Source of the DNA: a virus
Lineage: Duplodnaviria; Caudoviricetes
Length of the DNA: 28,999 nucleotides
Direction: 5' to 3' (one strand)
Virus record (IMG/VR): IMGVR_UViG_3300020042_006211
Location: 1 to 28,999 of that record
Below are positions 14,211 to 22,309 of the stretch, piece by piece. Each line of letters opens with the position of its first letter. Position 1 is the first letter of the stretch. The notes beneath the pieces were generated by a model. That model was not told where the DNA came from. It ran no database searches and was given only the letters and a program-made list of their open reading frames with translations. A program made the translations under genes and the position numbers.

Positions 14211-15365
14211 ATGAGTACCACCATTGCAGAAACATCGCCAGCCGAAACCAAATCAAGTCCGTTTAGTGCGGCATTAGAAAATGCGTTTAAAGGAGATAAC
14301 GCTTTGCCTGTTGAAACCGAAAGCCCATCACAGGAACCAGTTAAGGTTGCAAAGGAAAGCTCCAAGTCGGTTCCTGACGCTTTGTTCAAAAGGCCCGACT
14401 CCGATACCCGATCCGTTGAAGAATCGTTGCCAGAAAAAACTGCTGCGGATGAAATTGCCGAGCCGCCAAAACTGGATGCCAAGGGCAAAGCTGGCTGGGA
14501 GGCATTGAAGAAAACAGCGCGAGAAGAATCCACCAAACGGGCGGAACTAGAACGGCAAATTGAAGATTGGAAATCCAAAGGCCGCGATCCTGAGACACTG
14601 GAAAAACACCTTTCCGAGCGCGACAAAAGAATTGCTGACTACGAAGAGCGTGTTGCTCGCGTTGATTTGGAGCTTACAGAGAGCTTCAAGCGAGACATCA
14701 TTGAACCGCGCCAAAAGGAAATTGGTAAAGCCAAGGCGCTTGCGGATGAGATGGAAGTCAATCCAGACGAAATGAGTTCTGCTCTTAACTTGAGGGGCAA
14801 GGCTCGTTCTAATGCGCTTCGTGAAATGGGAATTGATCCTGATGGCGGTCGCATTAGCCGTATCATGGACAACCTGGACGAACTCCATGATCGTGCCGAG
14901 TATGATCGTGCAAATGCCAAGCAAGCTCTGGAATACCGCATTGAACGCGAGCGACTGGATAAGCTGTCCGAGCATGGCGAGTTTGTAAAAACCAAGTTCT
15001 TGCAATTTGATGACATGACCAAACGGATGCGATCAAAGCTGGAAATCCTAAATCAAGTAGATGGGCATGAGGACTGGAACACCAAGTCAAGGGGGGTCGT
15101 AGAAAGCGCACGCGCCTACATTCAAGACAATCCTTATGCCGATGTAGAAGCGGTAATTGAGGCGAAATCCATGCCAGTATATCGCGAACTGTTTCTGGAA
15201 ACCCGCGAGCGTGAGGCTGCGCTGGAATCCAGGGTGGCAGAAATGGAGAAGGAGTTGAAAGCCATTCATGGACGCTCGCCCTCTCTGACGCAACGAGGAC
15301 AGGCGGCAACCACTGGCAATTCAAAACCGTTTAGCTCTATGATCGCGGAGGCGTTTGGACAATGA
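14211..15365 (+). CDS. Capsid scaffolding-like protein (384 aa)
   Basis: Acidic disordered N-terminus, long E/K/R coiled coils and a short C-terminal amphipathic helix; lies between portal and capsid. Confidence 0.7.
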   Translation: MSTTIAETSPAETKSSPFSAALENAFKGDNALPVETESPSQEPVKVAKESSKSVPDALFKRPDSDTRSVEESLPEKTAADEIAEPPKLDAKGKAGWEALKKTAREESTKRAELERQIEDWKSKGRDPETLEKHLSERDKRIADYEERVARVDLELTESFKRDIIEPRQKEIGKAKALADEMEVNPDEMSSALNLRGKARSNALREMGIDPDGGRISRIMDNLDELHDRAEYDRANAKQALEYRIERERLDKLSEHGEFVKTKFLQFDDMTKRMRSKLEILNQVDGHEDWNTKSRGVVESARAYIQDNPYADVEAVIEAKSMPVYRELFLETREREAALESRVAEMEKELKAIHGRSPSLTQRGQAATTGNSKPFSSMIAEAFGQ

Positions 15366-16279
15366 TTCTTGTCATTGCGTTCTGTCATAAAGACAAAGCA
15401 AAAGCCGTTCGTCTTGCCAACTGGATTGCAGAGTTGGGTGGCACTAACAAACATGATCTTTTGCTTGGGTATCACGAAGACACCACACCGGACCCAATTC
15501 ACGAAATCCTTAAGCCCCACTTCAACCACGTTGGCGGATTCAAGATCAGCGACTCGGAGACAAACTATCCTGCAATTGCCAATATCATGTGGCATGAGTG
15601 TTTGAAAACCGTTGCAGATCAATTTAATGTCCCGTGGTTTTGGATGGAGCCAGACGCCGTTCCGTTGACACCGGATTGGCTAGACAAAATTGAGGACGAG
15701 TATCTTAAGGCCAAGAAGCCCTTTATGCTTGATCGCGTAATTACGCCAACACGCTCACACAACAGCGGCGTTGGAGTGTATCCTGGCAGAGTGCGCGACT
15801 ACACTACGCGCCTGTGGGAGCTTTCAAACATGCCGTGGGACGTGTTTCTGGCCGAAGATATCACGCCGTTTACACATCACACAGAACTAATTCACGACAA
15901 ATTCTATCGTGTTTGGGACGACCCTGACAGCGGGCCTCCAGTTTTTCCTGACGCTAATTCTCTTTCCATTATTGAACCAAGTGCCGTGTTGTTTCATCGA
16001 AACAAGGACGGCAGCTTGATTGAACGTCTTCGCGAATCGCGGGGTAGTGTAAGTGTAACACACCCCGTTCTCATCGGCGGGGAGATTGCCGGTGCAACCC
16101 CGGCCCCCGCAACTGTTGATGTTGCCGCAATGCTTCGTCAAATCGCTGAATTGCAGGAAAAGCTAAAAGCGCAAACTGTAACAACTCCGGTTACAGATGG
16201 AAAAAAGCAGCGCACGCCAACGCAGATTCAAGCCGCAAAAGACCGCATGGCAAAAGCGCGAGCAGGGAGAAAACCGTGA
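15362..16279 (+). CDS. GT-A-like glycosyltransferase with a C-terminal coiled-coil/basic extension
   Basis: N-terminal beta strand ILVIAF, DXD-like motif WFWMEPDAVP, SGVGVYP, PWD and C-terminal LFH.NKD. Confidence 0.6.
   Translation: MILVIAFCHKDKAKAVRLANWIAELGGTNKHDLLLGYHEDTTPDPIHEILKPHFNHVGGFKISDSETNYPAIANIMWHECLKTVADQFNVPWFWMEPDAVPLTPDWLDKIEDEYLKAKKPFMLDRVITPTRSHNSGVGVYPGRVRDYTTRLWELSNMPWDVFLAEDITPFTHHTELIHDKFYRVWDDPDSGPPVFPDANSLSIIEPSAVLFHRNKDGSLIERLRESRGSVSVTHPVLIGGEIAGATPAPATVDVAAMLRQIAELQEKLKAQTVTTPVTDGKKQRTPTQIQAAKDRMAKARAGRKP
16038..16112 (+). tRNA. Initiator-tRNA(Met)-like cloverleaf embedded in a CDS (pseudo-tRNA or tRNA-like element)
   Basis: Acceptor C-GCGGGG/CCCCGC-A with a C1:A72 mismatch and A discriminator; D arm GTGT-AAGTGTA-ACAC; anticodon arm CCCCG..CTCAT..CGGGG, 3 nt longer than canonical; variable loop AGATT; T arm GCCGG-TGCAACC-CCGGC; no encoded CCA. 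Confidence 0.7.
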
Positions 16280-16965
16280 ACTGCGACATCTTCATTCGTA
16301 GCTACGAAAAGGATTTCGAGTGGCTAAAATACTGCCTTCGTTCAATCCAGAGATTTGCTACCGGATTTAGAAACGTAATTGTGGTGGTTCCAAATGGGCA
16401 AACGCCACCAACCGGACCAGTCGAAAAGGTTTTCTATGTCCATGAAGGATGCGATGGATACATGCACCAGCAACTAACCAAGCTGCACGCGGACTGCTTT
16501 TCCGACGCCGAGGTGTTTCTGTTTATGGACAGTGATACCATATTCACTCGGCCAATTTCGGCCCGTAATGCGTTTGATTCGTGGCTCTACACACCATACT
16601 CCAGTCTAAATGATCCAAACACGATGACATGGAGGAAGGTTGTGGAGAAAGCCATCGGAGTATTTCCAGAATACGAGTTCATGCGAAGGCATCCGTTGAG
16701 CGTCCAGAAATGGATGCTGCAAGGATTGCGCGACTTCTTTTGGCAGAAACACGGCATGAGCTTGGAAAGCTACATCATAGCGCAGCCGGGCCATGAGTTC
16801 AGCGAGTGGAATGTCATCGGAGCGTGGCTGTGGTATTTTCATCGCAGCAAGGTGCAATGGCAGAACACCGACGAGAAATTGGGAGTTCCGTTTGTCCATC
16901 AGTCGTATTCTTGGGGTGGACTCAACGATGATATTCGCAAGAACCTAGAGGCGGCGCTGGCATGA
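16276..16965 (+). CDS. GT-A fold glycosyltransferase-like protein (DUF6492-like)
   Basis: DIFIRSY..D, CLRSI, GY..QQL.KL, DXD motif FMDSD and FSEWN..G. Confidence 0.7.
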   Translation: MNCDIFIRSYEKDFEWLKYCLRSIQRFATGFRNVIVVVPNGQTPPTGPVEKVFYVHEGCDGYMHQQLTKLHADCFSDAEVFLFMDSDTIFTRPISARNAFDSWLYTPYSSLNDPNTMTWRKVVEKAIGVFPEYEFMRRHPLSVQKWMLQGLRDFFWQKHGMSLESYIIAQPGHEFSEWNVIGAWLWYFHRSKVQWQNTDEKLGVPFVHQSYSWGGLNDDIRKNLEAALA

Positions 16966-17687
16966 GCAATGTGCTTGTGCTTGTTCTAAGTTCTCGCCGC
17001 GAACCGTGGGGCGATCTGATGGATGTCTCACTGGCAACGTGGGATGCTGACCCCCATCCTGATGTGCAGACGCTTTACTACTGCGCCCACGGCAGCAATC
17101 AGCTTATCCGTGACAATGTGCGCTATTCGGCAATGGAAGATTCTTTGGAGAATATCAGCCCACGCACTTTAGAAGCGTTTGGATGGGCGCTGGAACTGCC
17201 GGATTGGAAGTATTTGGCGCGACCTAACTCAAGCTGCTACGTCCATAAGGGTAATCTAGCCAAGCATTGCGACACGTTGCCGGAGACGGACGTATTGCGA
17301 GGTGCATGGGCTGGCGGTGATTCCGCCAATCCGTCTGTTGGATTTCTATGGGGAGGCGGTCAATACATCATATCGCGTGATGTTGTGGAGCGAATGGTCA
17401 AAGCCGGGGCTGGGTGGAAGAACGGACTCATGGATGACGAGGCCATAACGGACTGCGCCAAAGGGGTTGGGATTTCAATGAATCAAGGGTGCGTCTTTGC
17501 TACGATTAATGATCAGTTTGAGGGGAAGTGGTTGTGCATGTGTTACGGGCTTGGTGAACCGTTTACATTTACCGACTTTGCCGACTTGAAAAAAGCCGAT
17601 GGGCATTTCTTCTTTCGCGTAAAGCAAGATCATAATAGGCGGCTAGATGAGAAGCTGATGCGGGAGCTAAAGAAGAACCTGCCATGA
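16962..17687 (+). CDS. Glycosyltransferase, GT31/galactosyltransferase-like
   Basis: VLVLVLSS start, YLARPNSSCYV, F..GGG.YIISRDVV and DD.AI motifs resemble GT31-like enzymes. Confidence 0.65.
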   Translation: MSNVLVLVLSSRREPWGDLMDVSLATWDADPHPDVQTLYYCAHGSNQLIRDNVRYSAMEDSLENISPRTLEAFGWALELPDWKYLARPNSSCYVHKGNLAKHCDTLPETDVLRGAWAGGDSANPSVGFLWGGGQYIISRDVVERMVKAGAGWKNGLMDDEAITDCAKGVGISMNQGCVFATINDQFEGKWLCMCYGLGEPFTFTDFADLKKADGHFFFRVKQDHNRRLDEKLMRELKKNLP

Positions 17688-18442
17688 TCTACACCTTTGA
17701 CACCAAGCGGGCGCAACTGCGGGATGGATTCTATCAGACCGGCAGCGGGCCGCGTTGTGTGTTGATTGTCGGTTCCTGCCGGACAATGGCGTTCTTAAAC
17801 TATCTTGCAGCGTGGAATGAGGTAAGCGGAAACAGTTTTACAATCCGTTATATTAACCCGTTTGACTGGCACTGGAACGCAGCAGACGAACTGGTGGACT
17901 TAGAGAAGGCAATTGATGCTCTAGAAATTAACAGCGGAATCCTTGGCGTAATAGGCGATACTGAGATATTCATTCACGAACACTACGGAAACTACGGGAT
18001 GTTCAATACGTCAAGAGACGCTGCAAAGAATATCTATCAGTTCGGAATGAACGCGAACACGGACATTGGTATTCCAAACTTTCACGATCACTTCATTCTC
18101 TACAACGATTTTGCGGCGTTCGGTGAAGTGCCAGAGGATTGGAAAGAGCGTGGGTTAGCGGCAGTCGATAAGTTCTGTGACCTCTGCGCTAAGACCAGTT
18201 TTCCAGAGATGGCTGAATACTTCCGAAACAACTGGCAAAACATGCGCTTGTTCTGGACTCCAAACCATACCAGCGGGGCGTTTACACTTTACCTGTTTCG
18301 CAGGATGAATGACGTGTTCCTACATCTTCCACTAGACAATGATTTCTGGCAGCGGATTGGTGGTGACGATATGTTCCGCGATCCACATACTCCCGTTCAT
18401 CAAAAGGACATCGAAGCATACAAACTTACATGGAATCACTAG
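17684..18442 (+). CDS. WcbI-like polysaccharide biosynthesis protein (putative O-acetyltransferase)
   Basis: N-terminal VLIVGSCR (compare G-N-C-Q) and C-terminal RLFWTPNH (compare LF.T.NHP) motifs. Confidence 0.55.
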   Translation: MIYTFDTKRAQLRDGFYQTGSGPRCVLIVGSCRTMAFLNYLAAWNEVSGNSFTIRYINPFDWHWNAADELVDLEKAIDALEINSGILGVIGDTEIFIHEHYGNYGMFNTSRDAAKNIYQFGMNANTDIGIPNFHDHFILYNDFAAFGEVPEDWKERGLAAVDKFCDLCAKTSFPEMAEYFRNNWQNMRLFWTPNHTSGAFTLYLFRRMNDVFLHLPLDNDFWQRIGGDDMFRDPHTPVHQKDIEAYKLTWNH

Positions 18443-18984
18443 CCAACATATTTACGCGCATTGGACATTTCGGAAGCGATGCTGGTCATAATGACAAAGG
18501 ATCAACTCATTCCTACATTGAATCATACGAGCGTTTGTTTTCGCCGTATCGGGAATTTGCCGACGTTCTAGAAATTGGACTGGCATCAGGAAAGTCACTG
18601 GACTTGTGGGGTGAATACTTTGGACCCAAAAGCACTATAACCGGTGTGGACATTTCCGTGGTGTTTGACACGTCGCGATTCCAACCACCGCGATTTAATG
18701 TGATCCAGGCAGATGCAACAAGCCAAGCGGCTATTGTTGCGCTTGGTCAAGCAAAGTTCGACATCATCATTGATGACGGAAGCCACATGCAAGCCGACCA
18801 AGAGGCAGCGTTTCGCTTGCTATCACCGCGAGTCAAGGAAGGTGGTCTTTACATTATTGAAGACATCCTTAGTCCCGAATCTAGCGTCCCATCGCTCCGC
18901 ACACTTCATCCAAACTGCGAGGTAATTGATCTGCGAGGAGTGAAGGGACGGTTTGATGACATGCTGTTGGTTTATCGTTTTTAA
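18430..18984 (+). CDS. Class I SAM-dependent methyltransferase, sugar O-methyltransferase-like
   Basis: DK...HSY...Y, VLEIG...G.S, GVDI, FDIIIDDGSH and GGLYIIED motifs, as in MycE-like sugar O-methyltransferases. Confidence 0.85.
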   Translation: MESLANIFTRIGHFGSDAGHNDKGSTHSYIESYERLFSPYREFADVLEIGLASGKSLDLWGEYFGPKSTITGVDISVVFDTSRFQPPRFNVIQADATSQAAIVALGQAKFDIIIDDGSHMQADQEAAFRLLSPRVKEGGLYIIEDILSPESSVPSLRTLHPNCEVIDLRGVKGRFDDMLLVYRF

Positions 18985-18986
18985 TT

Positions 18987-19664
18987 ATGAAAATGCTCGT
19001 CACAGGAAAAAGCGGGTTTGTAGGTCGTCACGTTGTCCGCGAGTTGGAAAGCCGTGATGTCGAGATTGTGCCAGACTTCACCGACCGTCCCGAGGCGGTG
19101 ATCCATCTCGGCTGGGGGCATCTTCCTAACTACGAATCATATCTACATTCGGCGCAGGTCCAGTGGCATCACGGATTTCTAAGCGCGGTCATCGGAGACG
19201 GCATCACGAACATTACCGCAGCGGGAAGCTGCTTGGAGTTGGTGGACGATCCTCCGGTTTATGGACTTGCCAAGATTAGCGTCCGCGACGGTTTGTTGTG
19301 GCGGCTCCCTACGGCCAAGTGGGTTCGGTTCTGGAATGTCTATGGGCCAGGGCAACGCGAAGAATGCTTGCTGCCGAGTCTTCGGCGCGCAATGGAGCGT
19401 GGAGACGAATCTTTCCAAGTCATTGACGGGATGCGCGATTTCATCCCTGTTCAGGATGCGGCAAAGCGGCTAGTGGATATTGCGCTGCAAGAAGAGGAGT
19501 CTGGCGTATTCGATTGCGGAAGCGGAACCGCCGTTCCAGTGATTGATTTTTGCCGCAAATTTACAGGTGATAGCACGATCCGACTAGAAACAGGATACCC
19601 AATGCCGTCCTACGAACCAAAAGTGTTTTCAATCCGCAACCGCAATGAACACGGCGATAGATAG
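18987..19664 (+). CDS. NAD-dependent epimerase/dehydratase family protein (NDP-4-keto-sugar reductase-like)
   Basis: VTGKSGFVG Rossmann motif, HLGW..LPNY, catalytic YGLAK, R..NVYGPGQ and RDFIPV.D. Confidence 0.85.
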   Translation: MKMLVTGKSGFVGRHVVRELESRDVEIVPDFTDRPEAVIHLGWGHLPNYESYLHSAQVQWHHGFLSAVIGDGITNITAAGSCLELVDDPPVYGLAKISVRDGLLWRLPTAKWVRFWNVYGPGQREECLLPSLRRAMERGDESFQVIDGMRDFIPVQDAAKRLVDIALQEEESGVFDCGSGTAVPVIDFCRKFTGDSTIRLETGYPMPSYEPKVFSIRNRNEHGDR

Positions 19665-20802
19665 ATGTTTGTGCTGCGAGGGGGCGCTGGTTCCTCTGGT
19701 AAACTTTGGGCGGATGCCGTTGGTAAATACCTACGGCGTGACAGAAAAGTTTCCGTTGGCGGTCAACCGCTGCAAGGTCTGCTGCCATTTGCAATTGTCG
19801 GAGGCGGTTGATCCGCTGGTGCTTTACAGTGATTACGCCTACTGCTCTGGAACTGGAAAAACCGCATTGGACTTCTTTTCAGGGTTTGCTCGCACGGCGT
19901 TGTCCTACGTTCCAAATGCCAAACGGGTTCTAGACATTGCCAGCAATGACGGGAGCCAGTTGGATGCGTTTAAGTCGCTTGGGCTTTCAACGTCGGGAGT
20001 TGACCCGGCAGAAAATCTGGCAGGAATTGCCGCAGCCAAAGGGCATCTCATTCGCATTTCGCTTTTTGAAGATGTTAAATTCCAGTCAAACGAGACATTT
20101 GACATCATCACCGCGCAGAATGTGGTGGCGCACACGCACCGGCCAGTGGAGTTCCTGTCCCGATGCGCGGACATTATGCACAAGGAGTCGCGGCTGTTTG
20201 TCGCCACTTCGCAGGCAAACATGGTGGTGTTGGGCGAGTGCGACACGATCTACCACGAACACGTCAGCTACTTCAATGCGGGGTCCATGATGCGCCTGGC
20301 CGAACGTGCTGGGTTGCGACTGCTGGACATTGTGATGAACGACATCCACGGCACCAGCTACGTTTTTGTGCTTGGAATCGCTGGCGAGCCGTCCGTCCGT
20401 GTAGCGCAACGGATGCAATGGGAGAATGCGGTGGGGCTGACTAGACCGGGGCTCTACAGATGGTGGAAAACCCATATCGCAGAGAAGATCGAGCGGCTGG
20501 GCAGGACGATTGACGGATTCAAGAAGGATGGATTCTTCACTGTTGGTTGCGGGGCGGCGGCAAAAGGCATTTCCATGCTGAACATGGCATGGGTAAAATT
20601 GGACGTGCTGGCCGACAACACGCCGACAAAACATTACAAGGTGACGAGCGGGATGCTGATTATGCCGTTTGACGAGATTGCCAATCTAAAAGAACCAAAG
20701 GTGTTGTTCGTTGTGCTGGCGTGGAATGTGGGCGTGGAGATTCGCCGCAACGTGGAGAAATTGCGAAGCAGGGCGGAAGATGTGTTTATTGAGATTCGCT
20801 AA
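19645..20802 (+). CDS. NDP-hexose C-methyltransferase (Zn-binding, TcaB9/NovU-like)
   Basis: N-terminal CLCC and CKVC Zn motif, VLDIASNDGS, DTIYHEHVSYF, IHGTS, GAAAKG and VLAWN. Confidence 0.9.
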   Translation: MNTAIDRCLCCEGALVPLVNFGRMPLVNTYGVTEKFPLAVNRCKVCCHLQLSEAVDPLVLYSDYAYCSGTGKTALDFFSGFARTALSYVPNAKRVLDIASNDGSQLDAFKSLGLSTSGVDPAENLAGIAAAKGHLIRISLFEDVKFQSNETFDIITAQNVVAHTHRPVEFLSRCADIMHKESRLFVATSQANMVVLGECDTIYHEHVSYFNAGSMMRLAERAGLRLLDIVMNDIHGTSYVFVLGIAGEPSVRVAQRMQWENAVGLTRPGLYRWWKTHIAEKIERLGRTIDGFKKDGFFTVGCGAAAKGISMLNMAWVKLDVLADNTPTKHYKVTSGMLIMPFDEIANLKEPKVLFVVLAWNVGVEIRRNVEKLRSRAEDVFIEIR

Positions 20803-20810
20803 AATAACAT

Positions 20811-20841
20811 TTGACGTTTTTACGGAACCACCGTAGAAACC
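20811..20841 (+). promoter_or_regulatory. Putative capsid-gene promoter with TTACG-N7-CGTAG palindrome
   Basis: TTGACG-17 nt-TAGAAA preceded by an A/T-rich stretch; mirrors the motif upstream of the portal. Confidence 0.6.
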
Positions 20842-20844
20842 CGT

Positions 20845-20995
20845 TCAGAGGTTCTATTCAGCCGTGCTCCTCCGGTAAAAACTTGGGCTGTATCACAGGG
20901 ATTGGCCCGCCTGAAACCAAAACGTGCGCCCGCTATCGGCGGGAATTTCGCACGGTTTCACGTCCACAAATACGCAGTTTTACTTACTTACTATC
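20845..20995 (+). ncRNA. Candidate structured 5' leader of the major capsid gene
   Basis: Helices CAGCC/GGCTG and CAGG/CCTG, and a nested stem TGAAAC/GTTTCA + CGTGCG/CGCACG + CCCGC/GCGGG (20912-20960). Confidence 0.45.
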
Positions 20996-22246
20996 ATGGC
21001 CTGTCCCAATCCGTTTGCAGCAATTCAAATCGCTACCGAGCATCTCGGCAGCGAAATCTATGGTATCCCCACTCCGGCGACACCTTACTTTAACTTCGTC
21101 GAACGCGGCGTGTTTCCTCGAAACATGGGCGTTACGATGTCAACCTTCATCGCTGGCCGCGTCGAGCCTGACAGCAAATCTGCTGGCTGGTCTGCCGTTA
21201 CCTTGGACAGCGCGGGCTCCGGTTCCACCGGCCCGTCCATTACTGGCGGCATCTGCGCGGACAGCTTCACTTCTGTCCCTGTTGGATTTGATACGCTGCA
21301 ATACTCGCCCCGTAAGCTCCAGCTTCAGGGACCGTCTATTTGCCGCGATACGCTTAGTTTCGCGCATCAGCCCACGAAGTTCATCCAGCAGCACTACATC
21401 CCGTCTCTTGCCCACTATGTGAAGCGCAAGATCGATTTGGAGTTCCGCGACCAGATCATCAAGTTCTCGAACAAGATGTCGCTGGCGGCTGGTGGATTCT
21501 CCAACGTCGTCACCGCATCTACCAATCCGACCATCAAGCCAACTTCGCAGTTGAACTGGACTTGGCTGGACGGCGTGGCTGTTCGTCTTATTGGCGACGG
21601 TGCTGCCAACGCAGACGGCGAAGAGATTGAGATGGGGCCAGACGGTCCTGTGTTCCCGGCCTTCATCGGCCTGGAGGCTCTCAATCGCCTGTTCCAGAAC
21701 GGTTCGGCTTCTTCGCCCAACGCCTTCCGGCAGGACTTCCAGTATGCCGACTCGGGCAAAGGCGCAATGGCTCAGACTCTGAAATCCATTGGCGCTTCCC
21801 GGCAGATCAAAAACTTCCGGTTTGCTCCGGTTGTGAATCCTCCGCGCTTTACCTACAACAACTCTATCCTTGTTGAAGTTGAGCAGTTTGAGTTCACCGC
21901 AGCTACGCACGGACAGAAATCCGTTGAAACCAGCGCGTATCAGAACGCCGAATACGAAGCTATCGTCATTCCGCATCGTCGCCAGTTCAAGGCGGACATC
22001 CTGACTCCTGACTACGCCGGGCTTGATTATGAGCCGTCTATGTGGACGGGCGATTGGAAGTTCATCACTGGCGGCGAGCGTATCGTATCCAACAACGTGT
22101 GCTTTGATCCTCTGCACAAGTTTGGCGCGCACTTTGCCGAGTTCATCTACGCACCGGAACCGATCCACACCAACTACGGCTGGGTTCTCTTCTATAAGCG
22201 TTGCCAGAACGATCAGTCGCTTACGGTCTGCACCAGCGGTCTGTAA
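20996..22246 (+). CDS. Major capsid protein (416 aa)
   Basis: Size, strong codon bias (many C-ending codons), own promoter, downstream strong terminator and head-module position. Start moved from 20924 to the ATG at 20996 (MACPNPF), which follows an A/T-rich tract. Confidence 0.8.
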   Translation: MACPNPFAAIQIATEHLGSEIYGIPTPATPYFNFVERGVFPRNMGVTMSTFIAGRVEPDSKSAGWSAVTLDSAGSGSTGPSITGGICADSFTSVPVGFDTLQYSPRKLQLQGPSICRDTLSFAHQPTKFIQQHYIPSLAHYVKRKIDLEFRDQIIKFSNKMSLAAGGFSNVVTASTNPTIKPTSQLNWTWLDGVAVRLIGDGAANADGEEIEMGPDGPVFPAFIGLEALNRLFQNGSASSPNAFRQDFQYADSGKGAMAQTLKSIGASRQIKNFRFAPVVNPPRFTYNNSILVEVEQFEFTAATHGQKSVETSAYQNAEYEAIVIPHRRQFKADILTPDYAGLDYEPSMWTGDWKFITGGERIVSNNVCFDPLHKFGAHFAEFIYAPEPIHTNYGWVLFYKRCQNDQSLTVCTSGL

Positions 22247-22266
22247 ACAAAACCAACCCTCAACCG

Positions 22267-22297
22267 GGGCGTCCTGCGAAAGCGGGACGCCCTTTTT
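22267..22297 (+). terminator. Rho-independent terminator after the capsid gene
   Basis: GGGCGTCCTGC-GAAA-GCGGGACGCCC-TTTTT: 11-bp stem with one G:U pair and a GNRA loop. Confidence 0.9.
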
Positions 22298-22309
22298 GGG
22301 TGAAAACTT

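Follow-up and report, generated by a model that had tools for sequence, protein, structure and literature searches.

A stretch of 75 nucleotides in an uncultured phage appears to be read in two ways, as the linker of a predicted glycosyltransferase (GT) and as a whole tRNA derived from the methionine/initiator class. We analysed a linear 29-kb virus record, here called the window, which is 56% complete and carries one long plus-strand run of genes; the frame of ORF 15362–16279 stays open through the entire element (Table 1). The variation among relatives indicates that the same bases are under selection as both protein and RNA, and that selection on the RNA is current, not only past. The features that it has kept would make the element an initiator-like tRNA able to accept methionine, though it departs from a standard tRNA-fMet. 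The explanation that we favour, and to which we give about an even chance of being correct, is a dual-use gene in which host RNases excise a Met-accepting counter-defence tRNA, acting as a substitute or a decoy, from part of the late mRNA.

Table 1. Coordinates of the nested tRNA gene, its parts and the surrounding genes in the window.
Feature	Position	Strand	Evidence
tRNA-Met(CAU)-derived gene, fMet-like acceptor end	16038..16112	+	RF00005 43.7 bits, ARAGORN, covariation, synonymous freeze
Acceptor stem, C1·A72 unpaired	16038–16044/16105–16111		
D stem	16047–16050/16058–16061		
Enlarged anticodon arm, 20 nt	16063..16082	+	sequence
Anticodon stem, 5 bp, closing a 10-nt loop	16063–16067/16078–16082		
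CAU anticodon	16072–16074		
T stem	16088–16092/16100–16104		
Non-canonical T loop UGCAACC	16093..16099	+	by-eye reading of hand-segmented variants
Discriminator A	16112		
Host ORF, 305 aa: predicted GT-A domain (~residues 1–225), disordered tRNA-coded linker, coiled helix, basic C-terminal helix	15362..16279	+	AlphaFold, Foldseek
Translated tail, ending in a basic RMAKARAGRK helix	16116..16279	+	synonymous exceed non-synonymous changes; homologues without tRNA
7-bp hairpin/inverted repeat in tail, frozen synonymous sites	16176..16196	+	folding −7.3 kcal/mol
Upstream gene, probably head scaffold (from position and composition)	14211..15365	+	no family match; stop overlaps GT start
Downstream GT-like gene, GTG start	16276..16965	+	weak Stealth_CR2 and DUF6492 matches

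The element measures 75 nt up to its discriminator and encodes no CCA, the terminal A being followed by CTG; translated in frame, it corresponds to residues 226–251 of the host protein. Infernal scored it at 43.7 bits against the tRNA model RF00005 (E 1e-8, 131 nt searched, gathering score 29), and ARAGORN called a tRNA at 16038–16113 at its default and 105% thresholds and not at 110%. Both results bear out the tRNA origin proposed in a first-pass annotation, whose account of the sequence, coordinates, four pairing stems, C1·A72 mismatch, listed deviations from tRNA-fMet and open frame also stood. Whole-window Rfam scans reported no tRNA at the element, most likely a filter effect. The Glu(CUC) label given by ARAGORN was rejected because the program misplaced the long loop and relatives with 7-nt loops are read as Met. 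Identity with an annotated Salmonella tRNA-Met that has C1·A72 covers the initial 8 nt and the 14 nt ending at position 74; with its fMet-like acceptor end and retained CAU, the element has the Met/fMet ancestry that the annotation had assigned to it. The anticodon arm can alternatively be drawn with 7 bp, including two U·G pairs, and a loop of 6 nt. Read by eye, the sequence has all four of the tertiary contacts U8–A14, 15–48, 19–56 and U54–A58, and the T loop keeps U54–A58 and C56 and sets G55 against U18 of the D loop, a swap of the usual G18·U55. The cloverleaf is not a chance by-product of the peptide, because none of 1,000 random synonymous recodings of the same peptide received an ARAGORN call and none of 20,000 kept all 20 pairs (the best kept 19).

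Selection on the fold was assessed in 20 tRNA-bearing stretches, which reduce to 10 distinct RNA variants in about five lineages. In these hand-segmented variants, 199 of 200 stem cells are paired when 1:72 is set aside. Compensatory changes relative to the window number five in L008, five in L010, seven in L016 and five in L223, which also holds the one broken pair. A covariation count by program gave both-sided changes in 14 of the 20 pairs, a value reached by none of 500 shuffles, in an alignment (A3) that includes one Salmonella tRNA and misregisters the anticodon arm of L008 and L010 by one column, and with relatedness inflating the shuffle control. Part of the compensatory change may come from the swapping in of another tRNA arm and not from evolution in place.

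The codons tell of the same constraint at closer range. Within the window's clade, we compared 11 genes of equal length, excluding L368 because of an upstream indel, L173 because its flank is short, and shorter and longer types because of their length. Synonymous variation affects 1 of 24 codons in the tRNA, 97 of 176 in the GT domain before it and 25 of 42 in the tail after it (Fisher p 3.7e-7), and no 26-codon window elsewhere in the gene falls below 36%. The sole synonymous change is an A/G exchange at position 57 of the T loop, at which both purines are tolerated in tRNAs. Within the anticodon arm there is no synonymous change in these 11 genes, and the one stem change, at 16063, still pairs as U·G. 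Across the 10 variants, again by eye, 19–56 is G–C in eight, A–U in one (L088) and mismatched in one (L223); 15–48 is A–U in five, G–C in two, G·U in one and A·A in two; U54–A58 is present in all 10 and U8–A14 in nine. The linker peptide itself is not conserved between variants. Covariation and the synonymous freeze thus uphold the earlier suggestion of selection on structure, with the correction that this selection is not confined to the past.

These data weigh heavily on the idea that the element is a fossil, a tRNA gene captured once as linker code and now decaying, or the remnant of an attachment site, with only the peptide of consequence. The many departures of the window from the tRNA consensus, its alternative minimum-energy fold and the predicted disorder of the linker would suit such a history. 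However, the frozen synonymous sites among close relatives largely refute decay, every stem change among those relatives keeps pairing, the peptide is unconserved between variants, and the gene is whole, not a tRNA 3′ half. We consider a fossil highly improbable.

The features that have been kept are those of aminoacylation and formylation. All 10 variants carry CAU, between them in each of the three codon phases, so the encoded amino acids cannot explain its retention; an unpaired 1:72 and A73 are likewise found in 10 of 10, although position 72 is a synonymous third codon base. According to one paper, the determinant for methionyl-tRNA synthetase (MetRS) is CAU, and those for the formyltransferase are C1·A72, A73, G2–C71, C3–G70 and G4–C69 (PMC9976931). 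The window has every one of these listed determinants. Other initiator features are gone: A11–U24 is absent from the window and found only in L223, U11–A24 being present in the window and 9 of 10 variants, and three consecutive G–C pairs at the base of the anticodon stem, which PMC11822699 connects with P-site binding, occur in 0 of 10. The window has U18 G19, G55, C37 and a 10-nt (or 6-nt) anticodon loop instead of G18G19, U55, purine 37 and a 7-nt loop; among the nested variants the loop measures 7, 8 or 10 nt, D-loop GG and purine 37 each occur in 1 of 10, and CCA is encoded in none.

For comparison, we parsed free phage tRNA genes from an IMG/VR sample, in which 91 genes with CAU remained of 112 distinct ones once 12 that could not be parsed, 8 with another anticodon and 1 family member had been removed. 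A11–U24 occurs in 62 of these, three G–C pairs in 26, D-loop GG in 89, purine 37 in 88 and CCA in 44; the 1:72 mismatch is present in 77 of 91, and 65 and 47 of them are without the three G–C pairs and CCA, respectively. Free phage fMet-like genes of this kind (L242–L361) are common, with about 530 IMG/VR stretches estimated to match the T-arm pattern. Sequence comparison suggests that the nested genes descend from this common phage class and have drifted further.

The abundance of that class would also fit an ordinary extra supply of methionine tRNA, in which an excised, functional tRNA-Met boosts late translation, is nested to save space and has no link to defence. The estimated 530 or so stretches speak for it, and because only 26 of the 91 free genes have the three G–C pairs, lacking them is common. 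Yet a large anticodon loop with pyrimidine 37 decodes poorly, which makes the 10-nt and 8-nt loops with pyrimidine 37 a poor decoding design, and an unpaired 1:72 disfavours elongator use. Simple supply is accordingly an improbable purpose for the nested gene.

Retention of CAU bears equally on a role purely in cis, in which the cloverleaf persists solely for cleavage by RNase P/Z, which would lower expression of the GT and downstream glycan genes relative to the upstream head genes, the released RNA being inert. RNase P reads the acceptor stem, T arm and elbow contacts. It is these parts that are conserved here, as the size of the anticodon loop drifts between 7, 8 and 10 nt, and the host ORF has tight stop/start overlaps on both sides. 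A cut in cis that lowers expression was proposed by Mukai for selC in selB, and the selB model predicts an upstream mRNA without a stop and a downstream one without a leader (PMC8124441). Against this, CAU is kept in three codon phases while nearby loop and stem bases change, a cut site needs no anticodon, and tRNA-less sister genes are interleaved with tRNA-bearing ones on the tree. A pure RNase P/Z tuning site, one of the roles put forward in the first-pass annotation, does not explain the kept CAU and fMet acceptor end, and we regard it as rather unlikely.

The host protein is predicted to be a GT-A glycosyltransferase, in line with the earlier naming of the gene. Its AlphaFold model has a pLDDT of 90.5, with residues 230–245, coded by the tRNA, as the only stretch below 50; the top Foldseek matches are GT-A enzymes (E ~1e-6, 10–17% identity); and E96, D98 and H212, corresponding to a DxD-type motif and a C-terminal His, are invariant in 80 homologues. 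By sequence, the protein had no Pfam or PHROG family match, no meaningful PDB match and no homologue among INPHARED phages. The model also supports the proposed position of the element at the junction between the GT domain and a coiled, basic tail. Synonymous to non-synonymous changes in the tail stand at 22:9, 19:7 and 17:11 against three relatives, a pattern suggesting that the protein is translated through the tRNA into the tail. A separate small gene for the tail was considered and rejected, as L008-type genes do not share the ATG near 16130. The inverted repeat within the tail spans eight codons free of synonymous change and could be an RNA hairpin or a DNA operator.

The element sits in mid-operon, and the host ORF overlaps its neighbours through ATGA at 15362 and GTGA at 16276, and the gene after it opens a run of glycan-building genes reaching 20802, with methyltransferase and epimerase matches further on. 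Family matches in the window are to a methyltransferase, an epimerase, an endolysin and ERF; the terminase, portal, scaffold and capsid genes, which no family matched, are putative assignments from size, order and motifs. The GT-like/methyltransferase/epimerase cassette at 15362–20802, between the inferred scaffold and capsid genes, suggests virion glycosylation. Near the element, no sigma-70 promoter or terminator signal rose above chance. A gap at 20803–20923 precedes the inferred capsid ORF, where the upstream promoter match is at chance level only, and a GC-rich hairpin with a T run at 22228–22301, after that ORF, is a likely terminator.

To place the element in its family, we searched IMG/VR, metagenomes and genomes and obtained 112 distinct DNA stretches downstream of the GT C-terminal motif. 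The tRNA is present in 20, always in frame at the same spot, and since the other 92 are without a tRNA here, the nested tRNA is dispensable. Relatives score 40.3–54.9 bits against RF00005; the highest, L223, places its 54.9-bit tRNA between two enzyme domains of one ORF. Lengths to the discriminator are 72 or 75 nt in all 10 nested variants, and a multiple of three in 34 of the 91 free phage CAU genes. Apart from the nested gene, ARAGORN calls no tRNA in G002, a complete genome, or in G001, and G003 has a free tRNA-Gly as well. As a control, among 120 IMG/VR loci with the T-arm pattern (80 with flanks of up to 1 kb), two lie in a frame without a stop for at least 100 codons upstream and at least 30 downstream, one of them a family member and the other L259. 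A covariance model (R2) run on 100 sources found, beyond known elements, only L424, a free-standing and weak match of 21.9 bits; this tRNA-like gene (L424:1960–2039) has a 6-nt anticodon loop and lies about 1 kb upstream of a GT homologue.

The first-pass annotation had offered, as one of two readings, a tRNA gene captured by gene fusion; we considered this as a single capture across a lost stop codon. That scenario fares poorly for the window's lineage: 43 distinct homologous stretches stop within 60 codons, and a free tRNA follows in none of them (600 nt read from the motif); the basic tail is present in many protein homologues without any tRNA; and on a quick IQ-TREE phylogeny of 139 GT domains, built after removing 8 near-duplicates or fragments and one row that lacked the motif and keeping one in four of the multi-domain rows, the fMet-type insert, present in 23 rows, requires 13 changes, at least nine of them forced by well-supported branches, with tRNA-less sisters interleaved. 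The protein of L378 is 40% identical, yet its tRNA is close to that of L201. Labelled by eye from peptides, the same linker in homologues holds tRNA-like stretches of several kinds: fMet-type, complete tRNA-Leu-like and class-II-like. Because a tRNA, other tRNA-like peptides or nothing are scattered over the tree, one old fusion does not account for the family, and a history of repeated gain, loss or recombinational swapping of a module fits the sequences. Fusion across a free tRNA may explain L223, P0253 and P0278, in which a second enzyme domain comes right after the tRNA-like stretch.

Several further linker types were seen. From the peptide reading, the linker of P0112 and P0253 is a translated, complete tRNA-Leu-like gene, in P0253 directly followed by the second enzyme domain. 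In P0073, P0085, P0113, P0133, P0179, P0184, P0196, P0249 and P0250, the ends of the linker peptide read as the 5′ arm and T arm of a class-II-like tRNA with a variable middle between them, and this group is scattered on the GT tree. L170 (1191–1275) and L201 (546–640) carry a second in-frame structured RNA in the tail, with a 12–13-bp closing stem and inner hairpins (about −42 kcal/mol); its only Rfam match is a weak one to isrK (E 0.22), and a matching peptide occurs in about nine protein homologues. L069 and L197, and likewise the peptides P0242, P0277 and P0028, point to a short hairpin with a purine loop and a variable stem, then a conserved 8-mer, a motif for which Rfam gave no match. 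Finally, P0149, P0157, P0245, P0254, P0261 and P0269 share a recurring GGD-x-x-C linker motif that could correspond to a strong ribosome-binding site with an out-of-frame start.

Folding analysis revealed a competitor to the cloverleaf that the first-pass annotation had missed. The 5′ acceptor strand has the same sequence as the 3′ anticodon strand, so two hairpins can form instead; nearest-neighbour folding with ViennaRNA, a model that ignores tertiary contacts and modifications, gives −36.9 kcal/mol for the two-hairpin fold and −34.3 kcal/mol for the cloverleaf, a gap of 2.6 kcal/mol. The two-hairpin fold is also the minimum-energy fold in L003, L007 and L014, and in mRNA context the pair probability of the acceptor and anticodon stems is near 0. 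We also compared the window with Logan contigs, at low depth, such that uncovered stretches prove nothing. Two contigs from RNA libraries of two studies (X12 and X11) bridge the 5′ end at 16038, both aligning only up to 16088, and X13, from a run of unrecorded kind, continues to 16159. If they are truly RNA, X11 and X12 represent unprocessed RNA at the 5′ junction. Upstream, X12 carries variants of the L007 type, and position 16089 is one at which L007 and the window differ; the stop at 16088 is a weak hint that a strain difference at 16089 may explain. The contigs showed no processed end, CCA tail or charging.

An alternative is that the cloverleaf works as an unprocessed mimic within the mRNA, binding MetRS, a tRNA nuclease or another reader of fMet-tRNA as a bulk sponge, or as a sensor that stalls or cuts the message. 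Besides the two contigs that cross the 5′ junction, it could draw on the encoding of CCA in 0 of 10 variants against 44 of 91 free genes, on a T loop resembling that of Tymovirus tRNA mimics (at a score below the cut-off) and on the binding of synthetases to anticodon-like mRNA structures such as the thrS operator, described in PMC9976931. However, all 10 variants keep an unpaired 1:72 and A73, features of consequence chiefly at a free acceptor end; the fold would be melted by ribosomes as they translate the ORF; and near-canonical members such as L223 look like ordinary tRNA genes. An RNA acting while still embedded in the message therefore seems unlikely to us.

We return to the dual-use gene with an excised tRNA. 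The 75 bases serve both as the code for a flexible linker of the predicted GT-A protein and as a conserved Met-type cloverleaf. Host RNase P and 3′ nucleases would cut the tRNA from a fraction of late transcripts; the released tRNA would gain CCA, be charged by MetRS and be formylated; in trans, it would counter the destruction of initiator tRNA by host toxins or nucleases. One GT mRNA would be lost with every excision, which would leave a non-stop upstream piece and uncouple the downstream glycan genes; speculatively, the two-hairpin fold may limit the share of transcripts cut. The near-canonical relatives L223 and L088 probably supply a substitute initiator. For the window's lineage, with its 10-nt loop and without the three G–C pairs, the odds are about even between a substitute and a decoy or sink that does not decode; a decoy for anticodon nucleases had been suggested in the first-pass annotation. 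VapC and AtaT target initiator tRNA, according to PMC7180214 and PMC7595197, and in PMC10264068 altered anticodon loops of phage tRNAs are proposed to resist such nucleases. The same paper states that, where VapC cleaves tRNA-fMet, Shigella phages as a rule do not carry a gene for it, and this avoidance counts against a counter-defence role. The lost A11–U24, three G–C pairs, D-loop GG, purine 37 and 7-nt loop count against the dual-use explanation as a whole, as do the preference of ViennaRNA for the other fold and the dispensability of the element in the family.

A bolder and doubtful, though not far-fetched, variant treats the linker behind the phage GT domain as a swappable slot for in-frame RNA cassettes, the window's cassette being a dedicated non-decoding mimic of fMet-tRNA. 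Thanks to the retained acceptor end and CAU, this RNA would be charged and formylated, and its enlarged anticodon arm would prevent decoding; made in bulk from the late operon, it would soak up host toxins that target initiator tRNA, with the built-in two-hairpin fold setting the split between mRNA and decoy. If this is true, gene callers would be missing a new class of RNA anti-defence factor.

Irrespective of the mechanism, population data point to strong selection on a tRNA fold and a protein in the same phage bases. Annotation pipelines drop one of two such codes, and phages scored as tRNA-free may therefore carry hidden tRNAs, as illustrated by G002, whose only tRNA is the nested one. The family forms a natural series from the near-canonical initiator of L223 to the forms with 8-nt and 10-nt loops, with CAU kept throughout. 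This series makes the question of why phages carry tRNAs, whether for supply, as a nuclease-proof substitute or as a decoy, directly testable with short transcripts.

Within the largely non-subscription literature that we searched, PMC8124441 alone addressed the nesting of a whole tRNA in an ORF of a bacterium; no paper described such nesting in a phage or dealt with this GT family. That study (Mukai 2021) predicts selC (tRNA-Sec) within the selB ORF of Alphaproteobacteria, which it describes as the first nested tRNA in a bacterial ORF. The two cases share a whole sense-strand tRNA inside an ORF, a length that is a multiple of three, frequent absence of CCA, an ORF stop overlapping the next start and a predicted either/or between mRNA and tRNA. 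They differ in that the present case involves a phage gene and a Met/fMet-type tRNA, in a predicted GT-A host protein that has no known tie to tRNA-Met and thus no homeostatic loop. The tRNA here is also followed by a conserved tail or a second enzyme domain, its anticodon loops are enlarged, and the insert has been gained, lost or swapped repeatedly. Salmonella tRNA-Met (AGRM01000002.1) has the identical acceptor stem with C1·A72, A73, CAU and nearly the same T stem; unlike it, the window lacks A11–U24, the three G–C pairs, D-loop GG and CCA, has C37, a 10-nt loop and UGC for UUC in the T loop, and is nested. Free phage fMet-like tRNA-Met genes belong to the same acceptor and T-arm class, with a frequent 1:72 mismatch and frequent lack of the three G–C pairs and CCA, but they almost never lie in long ORFs (2 of 120 loci, one a family member) and they keep D-loop GG and purine 37. 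The Tymovirus tRNA-like structure (RF00233) similarly has a T loop starting UGCAAC and is a tRNA mimic within a longer RNA; the window scores only 17.3 bits against it (cut-off 40), has a classical acceptor stem in place of a pseudoknot and is internal to a DNA-phage ORF, not at an RNA 3′ end. Altered anticodon loops are shared with the counter-defence phage tRNAs described in PMC10264068 and PMC11464382. What is unusual beside all of these systems is the initiator-like identity of the nested gene, its enlarged yet conserved anticodon arm and the swappable slot that it occupies.
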